A program made the position numbers and the translations under genes. A stretch of 64,000 nt of DNA from a virus, in the IMG/VR virus record IMGVR_UViG_3300041405_000225, positions 1 to 64,000 of that record; one strand, written 5' to 3'. The stretch's first letter is position 1. Each line of letters starts with the position of its first letter. The notes beneath the pieces are model-generated. The model had not been told where the DNA came from and did no database searches. It worked only from the letters and a program-made list of their open reading frames with translations. This document shows, in pieces, positions 8,669 to 29,016 of this stretch.

Positions 8669-9105
8669 TGATCACCCTCTTGTGTTTGGGGGAGCCATTC
8701 AGGCGGGGTAGGACGTTTTTTGGAGTTAGGGAAGTCCGGCGATTGCGGCCAATCACGCAGGGCCTGCACGTAAATCAGCAGCTCGTTGAATTGCTCGGCT
8801 GTCAGGTTGGTCGGCTCTGAAATTTCCAACTGATCACGGTGACGCTCGCGCAACCACATCACCGCCGACAGCGTGCCCTCTCGCCATTGGCGCTCGATGC
8901 CGGCAAGCGTCTCACTGTCAGGTGGAAGGGTATCGACCAGCACAGGCCGCCCCTCGGCATCATGGCCGCGCACCTTCCCGGGAACGGGGTTGGCAATTAC
9001 CGATAGATAGATCTCCTCGGAGATTGGCACCGCGTCGGCGGGCATATTGTCGCCATGGACACTACGCAAATAGGTGCAGCCCGTTTCTTTACTGTAAAAA
9101 CGCAT
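8665..9105 (-). CDS. Tail fibre assembly chaperone
   Basis: YVQALRDWPQSPDFP...RPTPPEWL motif. Confidence 0.8.
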   Translation of the reverse strand: MRFYSKETGCTYLRSVHGDNMPADAVPISEEIYLSVIANPVPGKVRGHDAEGRPVLVDTLPPDSETLAGIERQWREGTLSAVMWLRERHRDQLEISEPTNLTAEQFNELLIYVQALRDWPQSPDFPNSKKRPTPPEWLPQTQEGDQ

Positions 9106-21162: not shown

Positions 21163-21957
21163 TCAACCCGCCAGCAGAGTGGCACGAGGGTCGCTGGCCA
21201 AGCGTTCGCGCTCTTCGTCCAGATACAACAGACACAGGGCCTCAAGTTCGCGGTCCATTCTGTCGCCCGGACGGGTGAGAGCTACGCGCCCCTGGCCGTC
21301 GATGCTCGGCGCCATCGCCGTCACCTGACCCGCCAGCGAGTCAAGGGGCGGGCACTTGATGACTTTGGTGGCTGAAGCCTCTTTGTAGCGCTCAAAGCCC
21401 AGCGCGTAGTTGTCCTGATACTGGTCGCGCAGCGATTCGCACTCCGGTGGCCACTGCACCTTGGCGTCTGCCCATTCCATACTGTTCGGCACGCTACGGG
21501 TAAGGCAACGGGCCAGATCGCAGCAGAACGACAACACGCTGATCATCACCCGGGGATTGCCCAACGCGGCGGCGTACTCCACCAACCGGATGGCGTAGGC
21601 CGAAGCCATTTCGACATTCCCGTTCAACGTGCGCTCACTCAGCAGAACCGCCCGACGGCGCCCGCCAACACTACGCGGCGCGGCGATGATGAAATGGAAA
21701 GCGTGAAACCGGTAGTTGTCGCAAACGACGGCCAGAAAGTGCTCAAAGGCCTCCCCCTGCTTGATTGGACCAGCGCCAGCAAGCGCCTTGGCCACCAACG
21801 CGGGCACGTCGCTCGGCTTCAGCGAGGCGCCTGCCGGGCGGGCCTTCTTGGGGAAGTAGTCGAAGTTGCGGGTCTGGCCGATCCGTTCAACCTTGCTCAG
21901 CTGGCCCGTCGCAAAGAGGAATCCGCGGTTATCGTCGTCATGCCGGCTGCGCTTCAT
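21163..21957 (-). CDS. Hypothetical protein
   Basis: 264-aa ORF, ATGA overlap with upstream gene. Confidence 0.6.
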   Translation of the reverse strand: MKRSRHDDDNRGFLFATGQLSKVERIGQTRNFDYFPKKARPAGASLKPSDVPALVAKALAGAGPIKQGEAFEHFLAVVCDNYRFHAFHFIIAAPRSVGGRRRAVLLSERTLNGNVEMASAYAIRLVEYAAALGNPRVMISVLSFCCDLARCLTRSVPNSMEWADAKVQWPPECESLRDQYQDNYALGFERYKEASATKVIKCPPLDSLAGQVTAMAPSIDGQGRVALTRPGDRMDRELEALCLLYLDEERERLASDPRATLLAG

Positions 21958-22340
21958 GCTGCCACCGCCGGCACAAACCCGTGCTCTGCAACGTAGGCGC
22001 GATATTGCGCATAGAGGGTAGGCCGGCAGGTGCGGGACACGCCGAACTCACGTCCGCCCACCACGCAGAAATAATCAGGCTTGTTTTTTCGTAGCTCGTT
22101 GCGCGACATGACGCGATCGATCGCGCTCACACGTACCAGACTACTGCGGTGCGCCCGCGTCAAGCTGGTATCCCCGGCCTCGATCTCTTTGATTGAGTGC
22201 TTGCCGCACAGCATCCACTCAACGCCATCACGGTCCAGCGCGTGGACATACTTCTCATCAGCCCAAAAGGCCACGAATACAGACGAATCAACTTTTTCGG
22301 CACGTAGTCGGTGGTTCTTCCTGTAGCGGCGCAATTCCAT
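21954..22340 (-). CDS. Stand-alone LytTR DNA-binding domain protein (candidate late activator)
   Basis: ADEKYV...SIKEIE...RAHRSSLVRVSAI...VSRT motifs of the LytTR domain. Confidence 0.75.
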   Translation of the reverse strand: MELRRYRKNHRLRAEKVDSSVFVAFWADEKYVHALDRDGVEWMLCGKHSIKEIEAGDTSLTRAHRSSLVRVSAIDRVMSRNELRKNKPDYFCVVGGREFGVSRTCRPTLYAQYRAYVAEHGFVPAVAA

Positions 22341-22466
22341 GTTCAAACCCTCAAAACTATCCCCGTACCAGTTTTATCGCTGTTTCACGCGATTAAAGAC
22401 CAGAAACACGGGGTTTTGCCTCTTGGTCACGTCGAAATATACACCAATAAACATAAAAATCTATGT

Positions 22467-24017
22467 TTATGCGACGTCGGCAAAAAGGTCGTTGGCTTTG
22501 CTCAGGGCCGCTTCAGCGCGCGAAGACTTGGCCACCGATGTTTCCTCGGTGCAGGCCACGTAGTTCACGTCTTCCAGGAAGGCCATACAGATGGTGTCGA
22601 AGAGGTCAGGCGAGGACAGGCCGTCTGCCGCCATGCTCTCTTTGCTGGCGATCTTGTAGCGCCCCAGCTCGTCGAACGAATACGGCAGGCGGGAGCCTTG
22701 GTCGATGAGGTCGCGTTTGTACTTGGGCGCCAGCTTGACCACGTTGTCTTTGATCGCCTCGGTGGCGTGGACAGTGCACTGGGCGCGCTGGTTGATGAAT
22801 CGCTTGCGGTTTTCGTTGGAGTGCGGACGGGCACCCCACTGCACGCCCTGGATGATCATGCTGCCCATCTGCAATTCCTCCAGGCGGCGCATGAACTGGA
22901 TACCCATGGCGTTGACGTCGATCACGATGGTGACGTTCGGGAATTGCATGGCGTAGTCGCGCAGCTTGACCGCCAGCGGTGTCCAGTCCTCGGTAGCGCT
23001 GTAGATTGGCACGTCGACCACTTCCACCTTGCGCCGACGCTCGTTGGCCATCCGGTCGCCCTTACCGCTGACTCGCAGGTGGGTGGCCACCGTCTTGTCT
23101 CGCCCTACGCCAGCCGCGACGTCAACCACGATCACATGGCCCCACTCTTCACCTGGCAGGATCGGGCTGGACGCCGCAATGGCGCGCTCAAGCATGGCGC
23201 CACTCAGCAAGTACTTGCTCAGGTTGGTAGGGAACATCCCCTTAACCTTGATCTGGTATTCCGCTTCGTCGGTACCGCCGTATTGCTGGCGCTTCTCCTT
23301 GATGAACTTAAGCGAAACAATCGGACTCTCTTCGGAGTTGAATACCAGGGGCACCCACGGGCCGCCGCGGTAGATCGACTGGCCATGGTGGGTTTCCCAA
23401 AAGAAGCCGGTCGATCGCGTGGGCTGACTGGCCATGATGAAACGGTTTCGCTCATCGGTCAGAGCGCCACCGATCACACCAAAGTTTTCGTCGGGGATGC
23501 CAGACGCCTCATCCGCCAGCCATAGCAGATAGTCGCCGTGGGTACCGGCCAAGTTCTCAGGGGAGCCGCGCGGGGCGGTACGGGTGGTTACGTACCAGGT
23601 GGCGCTATTGCCAACCACGTAGACCTTTTCGGCCTGGATCACTACATAGTCAGCGATCCACGCATGCGGGCCTTTGCGGATCTCGGCGAGCATGGTGGTG
23701 ATTTCTTTCCATACGCCCTCTCGCACCGTCTTGAGTTTCGGTGCGGTCACATAGGTGTTGGAATTCAGGTAGCACAGCAAGTGCCAAAGACAGATAACGC
23801 CGAAACTGCGGGTTTTACCAGTACCGTGGCCAGACGATACCGATACCCGGCAGCCATAGACTGAGGACTCATTGAACAGGTCTTGTTGTTGCGGTGTGAC
23901 TTCCATCAAGCACGCTTCAACCGCGAAGGCGTACAGGTTGAATGCGTAACGCTCGATGAACGCGGGCCACCTCGGGTCTGCCTCTAGACGCAGACGCTTG
24001 GGTTTAGGCTTGGCCAT
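22467..24017 (-). CDS. terL: Terminase large subunit (P1 PacB-like)
   Basis: Walker A SGHGTGKT, Walker B LLWLADEA, SQP motif III, RNase H-like VVDVAAGVGRD...SPDLFD. Confidence 0.95.
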   Translation of the reverse strand: MAKPKPKRLRLEADPRWPAFIERYAFNLYAFAVEACLMEVTPQQQDLFNESSVYGCRVSVSSGHGTGKTRSFGVICLWHLLCYLNSNTYVTAPKLKTVREGVWKEITTMLAEIRKGPHAWIADYVVIQAEKVYVVGNSATWYVTTRTAPRGSPENLAGTHGDYLLWLADEASGIPDENFGVIGGALTDERNRFIMASQPTRSTGFFWETHHGQSIYRGGPWVPLVFNSEESPIVSLKFIKEKRQQYGGTDEAEYQIKVKGMFPTNLSKYLLSGAMLERAIAASSPILPGEEWGHVIVVDVAAGVGRDKTVATHLRVSGKGDRMANERRRKVEVVDVPIYSATEDWTPLAVKLRDYAMQFPNVTIVIDVNAMGIQFMRRLEELQMGSMIIQGVQWGARPHSNENRKRFINQRAQCTVHATEAIKDNVVKLAPKYKRDLIDQGSRLPYSFDELGRYKIASKESMAADGLSSPDLFDTICMAFLEDVNYVACTEETSVAKSSRAEAALSKANDLFADVA

Positions 24018-24026
24018 ATTATCCTT

Positions 24027-24056
24027 AAACACAAAGGGGCCAGTTCCCCGGCCCCT
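24027..24056 (-). terminator. Intrinsic terminator just upstream of terL RBS
   Basis: GGGGCC-N8-GGCCCC followed by TTTGTGTTT. Confidence 0.6.
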
Positions 24057-24059
24057 GCC

Positions 24060-24101
24060 ACTCTACGGCTACGCCAATCGCACTTTTAGCGACGGTTTGC
24101 T
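24060..24101 (-). promoter_or_regulatory. Late promoter (AGCAAAC-N29-TAGAGT) of terL
   Basis: Motif family member. Confidence 0.6.
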
Positions 24102-24785
24102 GTGTTCCGTACCGTTCAGAACGAACGCTTTCCAGCTGCTGCCAGACGCCCAGCAGCTCAACGTTGTTTGGGTGTCGCGGAAAAAGCCTTTGAGCCGAAA
24201 TCGACCGGCGTGCAGCACCATCCCGCCGTTGTTGCAGTGGGCCAGCCCCCCACGCGCTACTTCAAAGCTCACGGCAGGCATGGCCCCGGCGTCTTCCATC
24301 AACCACATGACATCACGCCCACAAAACCCGGCCATGTTTTCGGGGGAATGCGCGCTCGCAGCAAAAAAGAGAACGCCGCACCACTGCTCCTGCTGGCGCA
24401 GCCTGATGCTTCGGATGGTGATTCGCAGGTGTTCAACCAACCACGCGTGCTCGCCCGAAATGTTCCTGACCAGCTTGCTGTACTGCTCACAGCAGCGAAG
24501 CATGTCGCCAAACGGCACGGCTACGAGGGTCTGCGCGTCGGGGCGGCACAGCAAGCGCCAGAACGCGATGGGCGCCAGCGGGCTGATCACTCCCCGCTCC
24601 ATCGCATTTAGGTCTGAGGCGATCGACACGCGGCAGTCCGGCAGTTGCGCGCTTTCGAAGGCCCGCCCCAGCTGGCTATCCACCTCCATGCCGCACACCT
24701 CCCGTGCGAACGCGGCCAGGTCGTTCGCATAACGGCGGACAAATGCAGGCCAACGTTCATCCTCTTGGATCAGGCGCGCACTCAT
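24069..24785 (-). CDS. Degenerate paralog of the TerL ATPase domain
   Basis: Collinear with TerL N-half (DERWPAFVRRYA vs DPRWPAFIERYA; SPENMAG vs SPENLAG); Walker A lost. Confidence 0.8.
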   Translation of the reverse strand: MSARLIQEDERWPAFVRRYANDLAAFAREVCGMEVDSQLGRAFESAQLPDCRVSIASDLNAMERGVISPLAPIAFWRLLCRPDAQTLVAVPFGDMLRCCEQYSKLVRNISGEHAWLVEHLRITIRSIRLRQQEQWCGVLFFAASAHSPENMAGFCGRDVMWLMEDAGAMPAVSFEVARGGLAHCNNGGMVLHAGRFRLKGFFRDTQTTLSCWASGSSWKAFVLNGTEHSKPSLKVRLA

Positions 24786-25381
24786 GCAGCGCCCTCCGTG
24801 GCCAGCTGCGCCGACTCCCGCTCGTGCTCGGCAATCAGCAACGCGGCGGCCTTCTCGATCGCGCGCAACCGGGTTTCTGCCTTCATCGGATAGTGCGGCC
24901 ATGGCCAGAGGGTGGTGGCGTAGTCCGGCACCAGCACTTGGAGGACATAGCCTGCCGCCGCGCGCAGCAACTCATCATTGCGATAACGCCGATCAAGTTC
25001 AGGGTTGTAGCCCTTCACCAGCTTCTGGCGCTGACGCTCACTGAGGATTGCGTCCTCGCTGGCGCTGGTCACAGGCATGGCCGGCCACAGCGCCAGCGGT
25101 TGCTCCCAGCCTCGGGCGGCCCGCTGTGCCCATTGCTCGGGACTCAAGTTGGTGTGTGGCCGCGGTACCGAAATGCCCTGATCCTTGCCACGGTGCCGAG
25201 TCAGCCAGGCTGTTGGGGTTTTGGTGCCCTGCTTGGACTGCGCCAGCGATTCCCATACCTGGAACGTCTTTTGTGTGTGGGCGTTCGCGTACTCGCCCGT
25301 TTCATCGTTATAGGCCAGGTCACTGATGCCGGCGTGACGACAGGACCGCTCGAAATGCTCACGATTGAAGAACAAGGTCAT
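24782..25381 (-). CDS. Hypothetical phage protein
   Basis: C-terminal ERQRQ..KGY..E.D..Y...EL.RAA..Y...WPW...KAAALLIAE domain common in phages. Confidence 0.65.
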   Translation of the reverse strand: MTLFFNREHFERSCRHAGISDLAYNDETGEYANAHTQKTFQVWESLAQSKQGTKTPTAWLTRHRGKDQGISVPRPHTNLSPEQWAQRAARGWEQPLALWPAMPVTSASEDAILSERQRQKLVKGYNPELDRRYRNDELLRAAAGYVLQVLVPDYATTLWPWPHYPMKAETRLRAIEKAAALLIAEHERESAQLATEGAA

Positions 25382-25653
25382 GGTGCAGTGCGCTCAGTTG
25401 AGAAGTTGTATGTGCGTCCAAACAGTTCAAGCAGCCCAGTCAGTGGCGGTGGAAATTTGTGGTTAATGGCGATGCGCGGAATGTCATCGCCCGCACCGCG
25501 GACACCTTCGAAGTGCCAACGATCGGCGGGGAGCTGTGCGCGCTCGGCGTGCTCGATGTCGCCAGCCTCATTGCGCAGCCACAGGTCATCCCCCAGCTCC
25601 AGGTACACGGTCAGCGTCTCGCCGGTCAGGCGATTGGTGATGGTTTGACTCAT
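25378..25653 (-). CDS. Hypothetical protein
   Basis: ATGA-coupled ORF. Confidence 0.6.
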   Translation of the reverse strand: MSQTITNRLTGETLTVYLELGDDLWLRNEAGDIEHAERAQLPADRWHFEGVRGAGDDIPRIAINHKFPPPLTGLLELFGRTYNFSTERTAP

Positions 25654-26111
25654 GGCTTCGGCCCGGCCTTGCCGTTGATCTCGATCGGCTTGGCGAACGC
25701 CTTGGTGAATCGGAACTCTTCCATCAGCTGGCTTCCATCCGCCAGCAGGGCCTGCGCCAACGTGGCCGCCGGGACACTGCGCCCCTCGGCCACATAAGCA
25801 GCCAGACAGCGCACCAACCGCTGCGCGGCATAGGTGCCATTGAATCCAGGCAGCAGGCGAGCACGCCCAACCACCGGCGATTCCAAGTCCACAGCGCGGG
25901 CTTCAGCGAAAGGCGGGGAGAAGTAGAAGCCACCCAAACGCTTTGGCTCCAGGCTGGCCACCAAATCACCGCGCCCAAAAGTGCGCAGGCCTGAAGCTGC
26001 CAGGGATTTGATAATCAGGTTCACGGTATCCAGCCGGTAGCGCTGGCGCTCGCTCAGCATGACGCCAGCAGGCGCCGCGGGTGGTGCGATAGATAAAGCC
26101 TGCATGTACAT
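25650..26111 (-). CDS. Hypothetical protein
   Basis: RBS AGGGG, operator at 26303 upstream. Confidence 0.6.
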   Translation of the reverse strand: MYMQALSIAPPAAPAGVMLSERQRYRLDTVNLIIKSLAASGLRTFGRGDLVASLEPKRLGGFYFSPPFAEARAVDLESPVVGRARLLPGFNGTYAAQRLVRCLAAYVAEGRSVPAATLAQALLADGSQLMEEFRFTKAFAKPIEINGKAGPKP

Positions 26112-26312
26112 CCCCTAAATCTTGAGCCGCAGCTGGGCGCGGTCGCATTCGTTTTCACCGTGCGGCAGCTTGTGGGCATGTACCTCACAGTTCCGACGCT
26201 TGCAGTCACGGCAGTAGGTGTAGGCGGGGGCTTTTTTGGTCCGCCGCCAGGTGACGCGATCGCTTTCGCAAAATCGACAATCCATGTAGTCCGTTCCGGG
26301 TCTATCCCCGGA

Positions 26313-27608
26313 CTACACGGGGCGTGCGTCGATCATCGCCTGCGCGTACACCCACCGGCGATCAGCAAAGGCGGCCATGCTTTCGTCTTTTTCCTGCACC
26401 AGCGGACAGGTAAGCGCGAAGTCGTCACGCAGCTCGATCAGGAATTTGTCCAGGGGCTTGGCTGACGGGCGCGTGTCCGGGTTCGGGCACGCGCCTGGGT
26501 CTGCAACCGGGGGCGCCTTCTTCTCGACTGCAATCGGCAGTTCAGTGCTGTGGAAGGCCAAGGAAATGGCTTCGAAGAGGTCCGCCGCTTCCGCATGCTC
26601 ATGTTTCCAGTCATCTGGCTTGTCCACCCGAAAACGCCCGGTGTCATCAACGTGATACGGCACTTTCAAACCCAAATGTTCCAGCACCGTTTCGTAGTTG
26701 GCGGGGCGCAGACTCTGCGGGATGGCCAGCTTTACAATGCCGGACTTGATGGCTTGGGCAGCAAGCACACTGCATTCAGCGCGCCGGTTGAAAAAGCGCC
26801 CACTGGTGCCACGCTTGGCCAGTGACTGGCCCATCATCAGGCCGTAACGGCTGACTGTCGGGCTCGCGAAGGTTTGCAGGCACTGAAGAAAAAACGCACC
26901 CATTCCCTTTGCATCCACAAGGATGGTGGCATTCGGTAGTGCTGCCGCGCGCTGGAACAGCTCAGCCGCTTGCTGCTTAATGTCGCCGCTGCCTGTGTAA
27001 AGCGGATAATCGACCACCTCAACGAAACGGCGGGACTGGGGGCCGTCGTAGACTTTCATATGGGCGACAACGGTATTACCAGGGCGCACGCCGTCGGATA
27101 CGCGCACACCGAATACGTCATGCGCCTCCACTCCTTTCGGGACAGGGCTGTCGATATCGAGGGCGCGCAGAAGGTCGCCTTCATCGAGAAGGAACGCGCT
27201 CGGCGATTGCGCAGGCTTCTGGAGAATCGCCGGCACCTCTGTATTGGCCGCCGGGGCGGAATGTTGCAGCTTGCCACCAATCACGGTTTGCACTGGATTT
27301 GGCTCCTTGGTGCGCACGATCTCTTTGATGGCGCTGGCCATAGGGGACGTCAGGAAGCTATTCAGCACCCGGCGCAGGCGATAGTGGGTCTGTGCGTAGC
27401 GCGATTTGCGGCCAAAACTTTCCTGGACTGATACGGGCTTGCAGCCTGGGATCTCGACCCAGTAATGCACTCCGCGGGCGATGTTGGCGTGGTCGGGCGC
27501 CGTGACCGCGAACCCTTGGGTGATCAGCCACTGCCTGAATGCCGACACGTTGCTGGCCAGCAACAGATCGGTGTCATGCGTTCCCTTTGCCTTGGCGGTA
27601 TTGCCCAT
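26313..27608 (-). CDS. Protein containing a degenerate paralog of the TerL nuclease domain
   Basis: VEVVDYPLY, PNATILVD..GMG, RFFNRRAEC, PYHVDDTGRF, DLFEAISLAF align with TerL C-half. Confidence 0.8.
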   Translation of the reverse strand: MGNTAKAKGTHDTDLLLASNVSAFRQWLITQGFAVTAPDHANIARGVHYWVEIPGCKPVSVQESFGRKSRYAQTHYRLRRVLNSFLTSPMASAIKEIVRTKEPNPVQTVIGGKLQHSAPAANTEVPAILQKPAQSPSAFLLDEGDLLRALDIDSPVPKGVEAHDVFGVRVSDGVRPGNTVVAHMKVYDGPQSRRFVEVVDYPLYTGSGDIKQQAAELFQRAAALPNATILVDAKGMGAFFLQCLQTFASPTVSRYGLMMGQSLAKRGTSGRFFNRRAECSVLAAQAIKSGIVKLAIPQSLRPANYETVLEHLGLKVPYHVDDTGRFRVDKPDDWKHEHAEAADLFEAISLAFHSTELPIAVEKKAPPVADPGACPNPDTRPSAKPLDKFLIELRDDFALTCPLVQEKDESMAAFADRRWVYAQAMIDARPV

Positions 27609-27898
27609 CAGTCAGCTCCTAACGTGTTGGCCATGAACGGCCTTAGATTTTCGATTCGCCCTGGCCGGCTGGCCTTCGGGCGCACTTCAACAATGGGCTT
27701 GATCCAGAGCTGTCCGGTTTTGAACAGGAACAGCTCCCACAGCCCCAACTTCATCTTGGTCGTACCCTTCTCGTACAGGCGCCAAGACTCACGGCTCACG
27801 TAAATCAGTTCCCCGGCAGCGCTCTCACTCAGGTTCCGGTTTTTCCGGGCCTTGCGGATGTTCTGCGGGGTTGGCTGCCGATCGGCGTTAAGCGTCAT
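27608..27898 (-). CDS. XRE-type HTH transcriptional regulator
   Basis: IRKARKNRNLSESAAGELIYVSRESWRLYEKG. Confidence 0.75.
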   Translation of the reverse strand: MTLNADRQPTPQNIRKARKNRNLSESAAGELIYVSRESWRLYEKGTTKMKLGLWELFLFKTGQLWIKPIVEVRPKASRPGRIENLRPFMANTLGAD

Positions 27899-29016
27899 GC
27901 GTCACCACCATTGTCCAAAGCGGCGATCTCGGCTTGGCGCTGGGCCATGGCTTCTCGCTGGGCATTTGTTTGTTCCAGGCCGAGGCGATACGCCTCATTA
28001 AGTCGCTCTGTGTCCACTTGGGCCGCGGGTGGCTGTGCCGGCTCGATGTTCATGTTGAAGATCCGTCCCAGCATTTCCAGATACGGGCGAGCGTCGTAAA
28101 CCTTCATTTCAAGCCCGTCCTTGGTTTCTTTCACGCCGCCGTACAGCGCCAGCGCGCCAGGTGAAAGGTGGCGGGTGTCCTTGAGCACGAGCTGGCCGAT
28201 ACCGTTGCCATTGCACTCAGGGCAGTCCGGGTGCGGATCCAGATTGGTGTCAAAGCCCAGTCCGCCCAGTTCGTCGAACACCGGTGGCTTGCGCTTCATA
28301 TGCTTGGCTTCAGCCACCAGCTCTTGGTGCCGGGCCTTTCTCGCTTCCAGTTCACGCGGGGTCATCTGGTAGCGGAAATCCTTGCCATGGCAGCACCGAC
28401 AGCACTTGTAGATGTATTCCACCAGTTCGCGGGGATCAGCCATGGCCGCGCCGTAGATCCGCTGAATCACACGCCCGGTGATTTCCTCGGTCTTGGCGAA
28501 CAGCTCCGCGCGCTTGGCCAGGGTGTAGGGATGTTCCTTAACCTTCTTTAACAGGCGACTGGCTGCCGCAGCGGCTACGGCGTCGGATTTGCACTCGTAG
28601 CCCGCATCTAGATACGCCTGAGTGCCGTTTTGAGTGACCAGCCAAAGGTCGACAAACTTCGCTTGGCGGGCGTCTAAATCGTGGAGACTCCCAGCCTGCA
28701 AGGCTTCCAGCTCTTTGGTGTTCAGCTTTACGGCTTTCTTTACTCGGGTACTCCCACCGGTTTTGCGTGGCGGTTTGGTCGGTGCGGGCGCAGCTGTAGC
28801 CCCTGCCGCTGGCTTGGTCGCGGCGGGCCTCTTGGGTTTTGCTGGGGCTTTTTTCGATGCCTTTGCAGGGGCCGTTTTTAGAACGCGACCAGCCCTCACC
28901 TTAACTTCTGGCTTTTGAGGGGGTGTAAACACGGGCCGGCCAGTATCGTCCGGGGATTGTTTATCCTCGGCAGATTTGGATTGAACATCAGTACCCTCGA
29001 TCTTTTTCCGTGCCAC
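27895..29016 (-). CDS. terS: Terminase small subunit
   Basis: QAKFVDLWLVTQNGTQAYLDAGY HTH, CRCC/CPEC insert, GVKETKDGLEMK..D...LEMLGR. Confidence 0.85.
   Translation of the reverse strand: MARKKIEGTDVQSKSAEDKQSPDDTGRPVFTPPQKPEVKVRAGRVLKTAPAKASKKAPAKPKRPAATKPAAGATAAPAPTKPPRKTGGSTRVKKAVKLNTKELEALQAGSLHDLDARQAKFVDLWLVTQNGTQAYLDAGYECKSDAVAAAAASRLLKKVKEHPYTLAKRAELFAKTEEITGRVIQRIYGAAMADPRELVEYIYKCCRCCHGKDFRYQMTPRELEARKARHQELVAEAKHMKRKPPVFDELGGLGFDTNLDPHPDCPECNGNGIGQLVLKDTRHLSPGALALYGGVKETKDGLEMKVYDARPYLEMLGRIFNMNIEPAQPPAAQVDTERLNEAYRLGLEQTNAQREAMAQRQAEIAALDNGGDA

Follow-up and report, generated by a model that had tools for sequence, protein, structure and literature searches.

The window, the whole stretch of 64,000 nucleotides analysed here, is part of an ~80 kb Pseudomonas P1-like phage-plasmid. 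The sequencing runs listed for it are DNA from rhizosphere metagenomes, with no RNA among them. Every gene of its packaging region lies on the (-) strand, and from terS through the gene for the A-like protein adjacent genes share 1-4 nt where one stops and the next starts. In coding order, the features are:

27895..29016, (-): terS, small terminase of 373 aa (Pfam Terminase_2, E 4.9e-14; phrog_51)
27608..27898, (-): HTH96, an Xre/MqsA-like helix-turn-helix protein of 96 aa with weak HTH_31 and MqsA matches
26313..27608, (-): N-like protein, 431 aa, protein X with an inserted, apparently dead TerL nuclease domain
26544..27206, (-): the inserted pseudo-nuclease domain, aa ~135-355 of the N-like protein, from Foldseek and the motif table
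26115..26285, (-): o56, small conserved ORF present in all relatives
25650..26111, (-): o153, variable accessory ORF without a family match
25378..25653, (-): o91, small ORF shared with most relatives
24782..25381, (-): o199, present in all relatives, its C-terminal ~90 aa matching eight PHROGs of unknown function
24069..24785, (-): A-like protein, 238 aa, a stand-alone and apparently dead TerL ATPase-domain paralog
24035..24056, (-): GC-rich, terminator-like hairpin with a T-tract after it, close upstream of the ribosome-binding site of terL
22467..24017, (-): terL, PacB-type large terminase of 516 aa (phrog_2)
21954..22346, (-): o130, small regulator-like protein between terL and o264 (phrog_13895; weak LytTR match)
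21163..21957, (-): o264, 264 aa, a third, more diverged and apparently dead paralog of the TerL nuclease domain

TerL is intact, carrying Walker A, Walker B and the nuclease acidic residues, and is 35-36% identical to P1 PacB. Its gene lies 3.9 kb from terS; in P1 and in Xanthomonas phage Rb1 the two genes are adjacent, which bears out the wide separation relative to P1 pointed out in a first-pass annotation of this DNA. Aligned across relatives, TerS displays an N-terminal extension rich in Lys, Pro and Ala, as well as an insertion rich in Cys. HTH96 is found in all relatives, with a position conserved over 20+ loci, and in the locus comparison no homolog of o91 was detected in relatives L020, L021, L032 and L033. 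The hairpin in front of terL is kept in relatives with compensatory changes, whether the upstream gene encodes the A-like protein or o199. Pfam, NCBIfam and PADLOC hold no family for the A-like protein, the N-like protein, o264, o199, o153 or o91. PADLOC defence profiles match none of the A-like protein, the N-like protein, o264 and their neighbours, save for the weak helix-turn-helix matches of HTH96, and a PDB sequence search returned no match.

When the whole genome is searched with TerL, similarity is found at three places only: TerL itself, the A-like protein and the N-like protein. The A-like protein aligns with the ATPase half of TerL (31% identity over 232 aa, E 2e-30) and is collinear with it, as had been claimed. 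The quoted motif changes also stand: Walker A SGHGTGKT has become SDLNAMER and Walker B WLADE has become WLMED. The P-loop is absent from 15 of 15 alleles taken from the loci and from 12 of 12 aligned database homologs; in the alleles ED, EG, EA or HD stands where Walker B of TerL has DE, and the SQPT-type coupling motif has disappeared. Two stretches common to TerL are retained, the N-terminal motif DxRWPAFxxRYA and PExLAG; the former, best conserved between the two proteins, also occurs in P1 PacB and Rb1 TerL. With a length of 228-240 aa, the protein stops after the ATPase domain, so that no nuclease domain is present in the same polypeptide. Its AlphaFold2 model (pLDDT 78) shows the ASCE ATPase fold that the N-terminal domain of TerL has, and structural comparison by Foldseek, which had been proposed alongside the first description, matches it to the solved TerL ATPase domains of T4 gp17 (TM 0.68), P74-26, HK97 and Sf6. 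Where the gene is present, it always stands directly upstream of terL in the locus comparison.

The N-like protein is similar to TerL over 221 aa (33% identity, E 1e-30), confirming that a copy of the nuclease half is embedded in this ORF. VVDVAAG of TerL corresponds to GVRVSDG and RDKT to PGNT, exactly as first reported. The host of the insertion, protein X, is a conserved two-part protein comprising an N-domain (aa 1-100 of the N-like protein) and a C-tail (aa 386-431), and the nuclease copy occupies the linker between them. Every relative carries X in its packaging operon, and close relatives encode it without the nuclease insert; the search for the short form gave 2 clusters only. In the inserted copies the first catalytic Asp is Arg in seven of seven; in that of the N-like protein the RDKT motif is lost, and of the acidic residues the second, an Asp, and the third remain. 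Free-standing nuclease copies downstream of terL in L024, L026 and L030 have Val in place of the first Asp (3/3). The predicted model of the N-like protein shows an RNase H-like fold, for which the same kind of structural comparison returns the solved TerL nuclease domains of E217 and Sf6. A predicted complex between the N-like and A-like proteins scored 0.00, which gives no verdict either way. In the ESM Atlas, the X N-domain resembles small viral hypothetical proteins and, weakly, restriction-endonuclease-like folds (TM ~0.4). A nuclease role for this domain was considered and dropped, its acidic residues being variable among relatives.

Another copy, overlooked in the first reading, is o264, which by its sequence is a further nuclease-like paralog and in all appearance a dead one. 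BLASTP aligns it with TerL residues 274-456 (E 3e-6), its family profile matches TerL nuclease domains, and hhalign pairs it with TerL 274-483 at a probability of 97.3% (E 1.6e-11). At the TerL-aligned acidic positions, the first and third residues are non-acidic and the second is not conserved; an invariant Asp is found two residues past the first position. No match to o264 was obtained in the ESM Atlas. In the locus comparison, free nuclease copies lie directly downstream of terL.

The copies are accessory genes, optional among close relatives, and across 25 loci the presence or absence of each varies independently of the others. The gene contexts compared came from IMG/VR, GTDB and plasmids. 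Because of this independent distribution, they do not represent one terminase gene split in two. The first-pass description of split copies of one terminase therefore fails: the nuclease domain sits inside an unrelated protein, and the copies are distributed independently. Splitting of one terminase gene by an insertion was likewise rejected, since on the coding strand the nuclease copy precedes the ATPase copy. The tempo of change also sets the copies apart from their parent enzyme. Tree branches of the A-like protein measure 0.4-1.7 versus 0.01-0.1 for TerL, those of the copies are 10-20x longer than those of TerL, and the A-like tree conflicts with the TerL tree. Among elements whose alleles of the copies are highly dissimilar, TerL identity is 86-99%. 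Between the window and its relative L013, 12 kb are 90-99% identical with the exception of the N-like gene, at 55-76%, and within it the pseudo-nuclease segment 26544..27206 has 55-65% nucleotide identity and forms the cassette-swap segment. The N-like gene has been exchanged as a cassette among genomes whose remaining sequence is 90-99% identical. The fast change of the copies could reflect relaxed constraint together with recombination.

Dead ATPase-only paralogs fall into three separate clades, and joining them in one clade is rejected by an AU test (p 0.0016); such paralogs arose independently at least two to three times in PacB-type phages. One of them is enterobacterial. Both of its Walker motifs, A and B, are degenerate, and it adjoins isaA in ~100 of 5,426 complete E. 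coli genomes, far from pacAB. The natural P1-like plasmid NZ_CP062890, for example, has it downstream of isaA. In reference P1 only the neighbouring isaA matches and the dead ATPase gene is absent, which may be the reason that the E. coli version went unstudied. P1 IsaA has no similarity to any of the window proteins.

Could the copies be functionless, decaying remnants of duplicated terL DNA? Their catalytic residues are gone and they have no family of their own in Pfam or NCBIfam, as such remnants might. However, dN/dS is 0.23 for the A-like protein, 0.17 for the N-like protein and 0.23 for o264, compared with 0.07 for TerL, values read from alignments in which dS is saturated. Homologs 37-100% identical keep a constant length, with 19 intact clusters for the A-like protein and 27 for the N-like protein, all on ~80 kb Pseudomonas contigs. 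More than 20 lineages retain intact ORFs, and no frameshifted or truncated copy was seen in the 25 loci. Two signs of pseudogenes, frameshifts and dN/dS near 1, are thereby missing, in agreement with the earlier claim that these ORFs are intact and under selection rather than in decay. Together with the high-confidence predicted folds and the independent keeping of like dead paralogs in at least two to three lineages, these observations largely refute the remnant explanation, which is now very improbable. A derivation of the A-like and N-like proteins from TerL, with loss of catalytic residues in every allele examined, is supported by their alignments. On the evidence of enzyme homology, lost catalytic residues and purifying selection, the copies are classed as pseudoenzymes.

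The parent family is the P1 PacB-type TerL, with which the copies have the fold, the N-terminal motif and PExLAG in common. The A-like protein is collinear with its ATPase domain, the N-like protein and o264 with its nuclease domain. Unlike PacB-type TerL, the copies are single-domain proteins or inserts that are optional, evolve far faster and lack the P-loop, the Walker B Asp-Glu, SQPT and the first nuclease Asp. Pseudoenzymes that accompany an active enzyme include the inactive ring-ATPase subunits of the clamp loader (delta and delta-prime) and the Rad51 paralogs. Those proteins, like the copies, are duplicated, have lost catalytic residues and have kept the fold under purifying selection. 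They are, however, obligatory and co-evolve with their active partner, whereas the copies are dispensable and cassette-swapped.

A role as non-catalytic accessory modulators of the phage's own pacase is possible but doubtful. The dead ATPase would dock on TerS or TerL through its retained N-terminal motif, and the dead nuclease domains would hold on to DNA, or to the end cut at pac, with no cleavage of their own, so that the copies adjust how headful packaging is initiated, how ends are protected or how packaging terminates. Gene order favours such a role: the genes belong to the terS-terL operon or directly adjoin it, their starts and stops overlapping, the A-like gene being invariably directly 5' of terL and the free nuclease copies directly 3' of it, and one nuclease copy is fused into X, a protein found in the packaging operon of every relative. 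The sharing of DxRWPAFxxRYA and PExLAG between the A-like protein and TerL points the same way, and dead RNase H-fold domains often persist as nucleic-acid binders. Against it, close relatives with the same TerL, TerS and X do without the copies, and the enterobacterial dead ATPase paralogs are distant from pacAB. Change 10-20x faster than that of TerL, and swapping between near-identical genomes, are unexpected for a subunit that fits a conserved enzyme. Such optional presence, hypervariability and cassette swapping are typical of exclusion or conflict genes, and the copies might instead be dominant-negative poisons that, during co-infection, hit the terminase of related phage-plasmids or of satellites and spare that of the resident. 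The retained PacB-specific motifs would direct them to PacB-type machinery. Packaging is redirected or blocked in a comparable manner by Ppi and the alternative TerS of SaPIs, small proteins without enzymatic activity whose targets are terminase subunits; these are satellite-encoded, TerS-directed and not derived from TerL, while the copies are phage-encoded beside their own terL. This poisoning scenario is improbable: with TerL 86-99% identical despite differing alleles of the copies, there is little basis for distinguishing self from non-self, and an inhibitor expressed from the late packaging operon would also meet the phage's own TerL. A scan of the region for sigma-70-type promoter-like sites gave none.

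Preferred over modulation of the phage's own packaging is that the copies are terminase-domain mimics with a role in conflict, to which we assign a probability of about 0.4. Three domesticated dead TerL-domain paralogs, a stand-alone ATPase-like protein, a nuclease-like insert in X and a free nuclease-like protein, would act without catalysis by mimicking terminase domains. They are presumably co-produced with TerL, whose coupled gene string they share, and would compete for some binder of terminase domains. The copies are hypervariable and the phage's own TerL, TerS and neighbouring proteins are conserved; therefore, the partner is more likely to be external and fast-changing. The likeliest binder would be a host factor that recognises terminase domains, with the paralogs as its antagonists or decoys. 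Their evolution, being optional, fast, cassette-swapped and convergent, fits a conflict-type role. Accessory, fast-evolving phage genes also encode the anti-defence proteins Ocr, a DNA mimic, and Tad1 and Tad2, which are signal sponges; that the copies likewise occupy a host factor without catalysis is a proposal.

Host factors of the required kind are known. Avs1-3 and Upx target terminase's ATPase and nuclease domains, SeAvs3 senses active-site residues and bound ATP of the terminase, and in EcAvs2 ATP is located at the interface with the terminase ATPase domain (PMC13601566). Since the A-like protein has no P-loop, it cannot supply active-site residues and ATP and would be a poor ligand for SeAvs3 or EcAvs2. 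STAND sensors are normally activated by ligand binding, so a decoy would need a special, non-activating binding mode. Two further points speak against mimicry. Packaging accessory factors would be expected no less in a late terS-terL operon whose starts are coupled, and the presence of the N-terminal motif in P1 PacB and Rb1 TerL points to a conserved phage-internal partner or a purely structural role. It is conceivable, if somewhat unlikely, that PacB-type phages and phage-plasmids have repeatedly evolved dead, stand-alone terminase-domain copies that antagonise host terminase sensors, whether Avs-like, Upx-like or other.

Of all tailed-phage proteins, the large terminase is conserved most strongly, and it is a main target of innate immunity in bacteria. 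If the proposal is true, the copies would be anti-defence proteins of a new class, arising through self-mimicry. More broadly, they point to a side of terminase biology that has gone unstudied, be it in blunting of sensing, tuning of headful packaging or exclusion of rivals. Within an incomplete coverage of the literature, no account was found of conserved single-domain paralogs of terminase that lack catalysis, nor any report of a mimic of a phage's own terminase domain. The E. coli P1-like plasmids that carry the dead ATPase gene and laboratory P1, which lacks it, offer a ready natural comparison.

The TerL (large terminase) of the window is PacB-type, with 35-36% identity to P1 PacB over 95% of its length. 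The window covers the first 64 kb of its source, an IMG/VR virus record of 79.8 kb. Among named elements the nearest are non-mobilizable plasmids of Pseudomonas, ~80-95 kb in size (CP048608, pKF715C and CP070504); contigs of ~82-85 kb in Pseudomonas genomes are related as well. Thus, the element is a member of a Pseudomonas group of P1-like phage-plasmids. Its packaging region reads terS, HTH96, N-like, o56, o153, o91, o199, A-like, terL, o130, o264, all on the minus strand, and includes:

27895-29016, minus strand: terS, small terminase gene
26313-27608, minus strand: N-like, ORF with a dead TerL nuclease domain
24782-25381, minus strand: o199
24069-24785, minus strand: A-like, dead TerL ATPase-domain paralog
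22467-24017, minus strand: terL, large terminase gene
21163-21957, minus strand: o264, nuclease-like, two genes downstream of terL

From terS through A-like most neighbours overlap by 1-4 nt, with short gaps only at N-like/o56 and o56/o153. Homologs support both the terL start at 24017 and the A-like start at 24785, the ATG of which overlaps the stop codon of o199. As the first-pass annotation had pointed out, terS and terL lie ~3.9 kb apart whereas they are adjacent in P1; terS/pacA also adjoins terL/pacB in Xanthomonas phage Rb1. It is in the Pseudomonas group that the 3.9 kb insert occurs. All relatives keep in terS a ~105-aa N-terminal extension rich in Lys, Pro and Ala, and a four-Cys-pair insertion (CCRCCHG ... 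CPECNGNG) within the Terminase_2 domain. The C-terminal ~90 aa of o199 match the C-terminal ends of eight function-unknown PHROG families, which include proteins of 500-685 aa, and look like a widespread uncharacterised phage domain.

The copies of the two TerL halves reported at first pass are real: A-like shares 31% identity with TerL over 232 aa (E 2e-30) and N-like 33% over 221 aa (E 1e-30). Terminase folds are predicted for both. AlphaFold2 models from family alignments (pLDDT 78 for A-like, 76 for N-like) match, in Foldseek, the solved TerL ATPase domains of T4 gp17 (TM 0.68), P74-26, HK97 and Sf6, and the nuclease domains of E217, Sf6 and G20c, respectively. The motif substitutions described earlier are correct. 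The P-loop is absent from the A-like alleles of the loci (15/15), in which the Walker B Asp-Glu has become ED, EG, EA or HD and the SQPT stretch is lost. A-like alleles keep the N-terminal helix motif DxRWPAFxxRYAxxLxxFAxEVCG and PExLAG.

N-like is a mosaic: a shorter protein, X, shares its N-domain (aa 1-100) and its C-terminal tail (aa 386-431). This protein holds the position of N-like in every relative (196-272 aa in L020, pKF715C and CP070504), and only in the window's clade does its linker contain the nuclease-like domain. All seven inserted copies have Arg in place of the first catalytic Asp and have lost the RDKT stretch; most retain the second Asp and the third acidic residue. The N-domain of X, present in the packaging operon of every relative, is compact alpha/beta; in its Atlas model it is similar to viral hypothetical proteins of 81-87 aa (TM 0.6-0.7).

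By its sequence, o264 is a third dead copy, probably of the TerL nuclease domain. BLASTP aligns it collinearly with TerL residues 274-456 (E 3e-6), its family profile matches TerL nuclease domains, and hhalign assigns 97.3% probability (E 1.6e-11) to its alignment with TerL 274-483. Where TerL has its acidic residues, o264 has non-acidic ones at the first and third positions and an acidic but non-conserved one at the second; an invariant Asp lies two residues past the first. The free nuclease-like copies that directly follow terL in L024, L026 and L030 have Val at the first catalytic position. A fourth location is seen in L029 (1678-2739): there an ORF of 353 aa, which lies several kb upstream of terS and falls on a long isolated branch, has a C-terminal half 33% identical to the TerL nuclease domain.

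Selection rather than decay had been proposed, and the data agree. In comparison with the P. fluorescens plasmid, TerL has a dN/dS of 0.074, A-like and o264 have 0.23 each and N-like has 0.17; within N-like the N-domain and the nuclease-like domain each come out at ~0.10, although dS is saturated there. Database searches returned 19 clusters of A-like homologs (228-240 aa, 42-100% identity) and 27 of N-like (389-448 aa, 37-100%), all of them located on Pseudomonas contigs of ~80 kb. Frameshifted copies were not seen among 25 loci. By these measures the copies are not pseudogenes.

Across the 25 related loci the dead copies were gained and lost independently of each other, and they are therefore accessory genes; a single terminase split in two is contradicted by the same pattern. 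A-like, the inserted nuclease domain and o264 all occur in the window's clade. L020 combines A-like and o264 with a short X; L021, L031, L032, L033 and pKF715C have A-like only. In L024, A-like is accompanied by a free nuclease-like ORF that directly follows terL; such a free ORF is the only copy in L026 and L030, and L003, L022, L023 and L034 have no dead copy. Inspection by eye suggests that in L026 and L030 (~8763-8989) the 277-nt gap between o199 and terL holds a small ORF similar to the C-terminal extension of pKF715C-type A-like, which looks like a leftover or separable module.

The A-likes form a single clade (SH-aLRT 98) branching among Pseudomonas TerLs, with terminal branches of 0.4-1.7 versus 0.01-0.1 for TerL and a tree discordant with that of TerL. 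Inserted (support 99) and free downstream (support 98) nuclease copies form two distinct clades, both close to the base of that TerL group. Over 12 kb the P. azerbaijanoccidentalis SWRI74 contig matches the window at 90-99% identity. The one exception coincides exactly with the N-like gene, whose N-domain falls to 74-76% and whose nuclease-like part falls to 55-65%; the cassette has been cleanly replaced. L027 shares 94% identity with the window in TerL and only 42% in A-like.

When 1.84 billion representatives were searched with a profile, 1,089 matched. Among the best 150, 55 are at most 300 aa, and 42 of these lack Walker A; such short copies form three clades, namely the large Pseudomonas A-like clade, one nested within the P1 PacB clade, and one comprising P0085, P0176, P0130 and P0167. 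A single clade of all dead copies was rejected by the AU test (p 0.0016), a test weakened by the group having been named after the first tree was seen. The P1 variant MH422554 encodes a 364-aa dead ATPase-like protein between isaA and hxr, and a Citrobacter plasmid a 263-aa one after ref; in these GHGTGKS has become PHGIGET or PSGIGCK, and DEASG has become INSAE or PNANS. Of 5,426 complete E. coli genomes, 100 carry the cassette of isaA and dead paralog at >=80% coverage, nearly always on a plasmid. Reference P1 (NC_005856, 21737-22532) matches only the isaA part of the MH422554 cassette (L041 4202-6083), and laboratory P1 therefore lacks the dead-paralog gene, which is gone where reference P1 carries IS1.

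The dead copies are most likely non-enzymatic mimics of terminase domains, because catalysis is lost, the fold is kept, selection is purifying and they are placed beside terL. Mimicry in a conflict with a fast-changing external partner is our tentative reading (probability roughly 0.4). Such a partner fits because the copies are dispensable, their branches are 10-20 times those of TerL, cassettes are exchanged between near-identical genomes and origins are repeated and independent. Avs1-3 and Upx have terminase ATPase and nuclease domains as targets; SeAvs3 senses active-site residues and bound ATP, and the interface of EcAvs2 with the terminase ATPase domain holds ATP (PMC13601566). Since recognition by both involves bound ATP, plus active-site residues for SeAvs3, the decoy role suggested at first pass faces a specific difficulty: a P-loop-less protein cannot supply the features they read. 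A-like may be recognized in the manner of Upx, through an unfolded ATPase core, or by other sensors.

The competing reading, a little less probable, is a partner inside the packaging machinery, with the copies modulating the element's own pacase. In its favour are the position in the operon, the fact that one copy is fused to X, a protein found in every relative, and the N-terminal motif still shared with TerL. Interference with rival elements is a distinctly improbable role, and decay, given the dN/dS values, is scarcely credible. No paper describing dead terminase paralogs was found in the literature searched, whose coverage was incomplete.

Just upstream of the terL ribosome-binding site lies a GC-rich hairpin with a T-tract (24035-24056, minus strand), preceded by a TAGAGT/TAAGGT-like hexamer. 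It occupies the same position in L013-L038. Relatives with A-like upstream and relatives with o199 upstream both retain it, and the changes in its stem are compensatory; it may serve as an attenuator or belong to a separate terL promoter. In L003 (2911-5187), L033 (8986-11280) and L034 (8983-11295) TerL is ~760 aa long and contains a Hint/homing-endonuclease intein just past the Walker A region.
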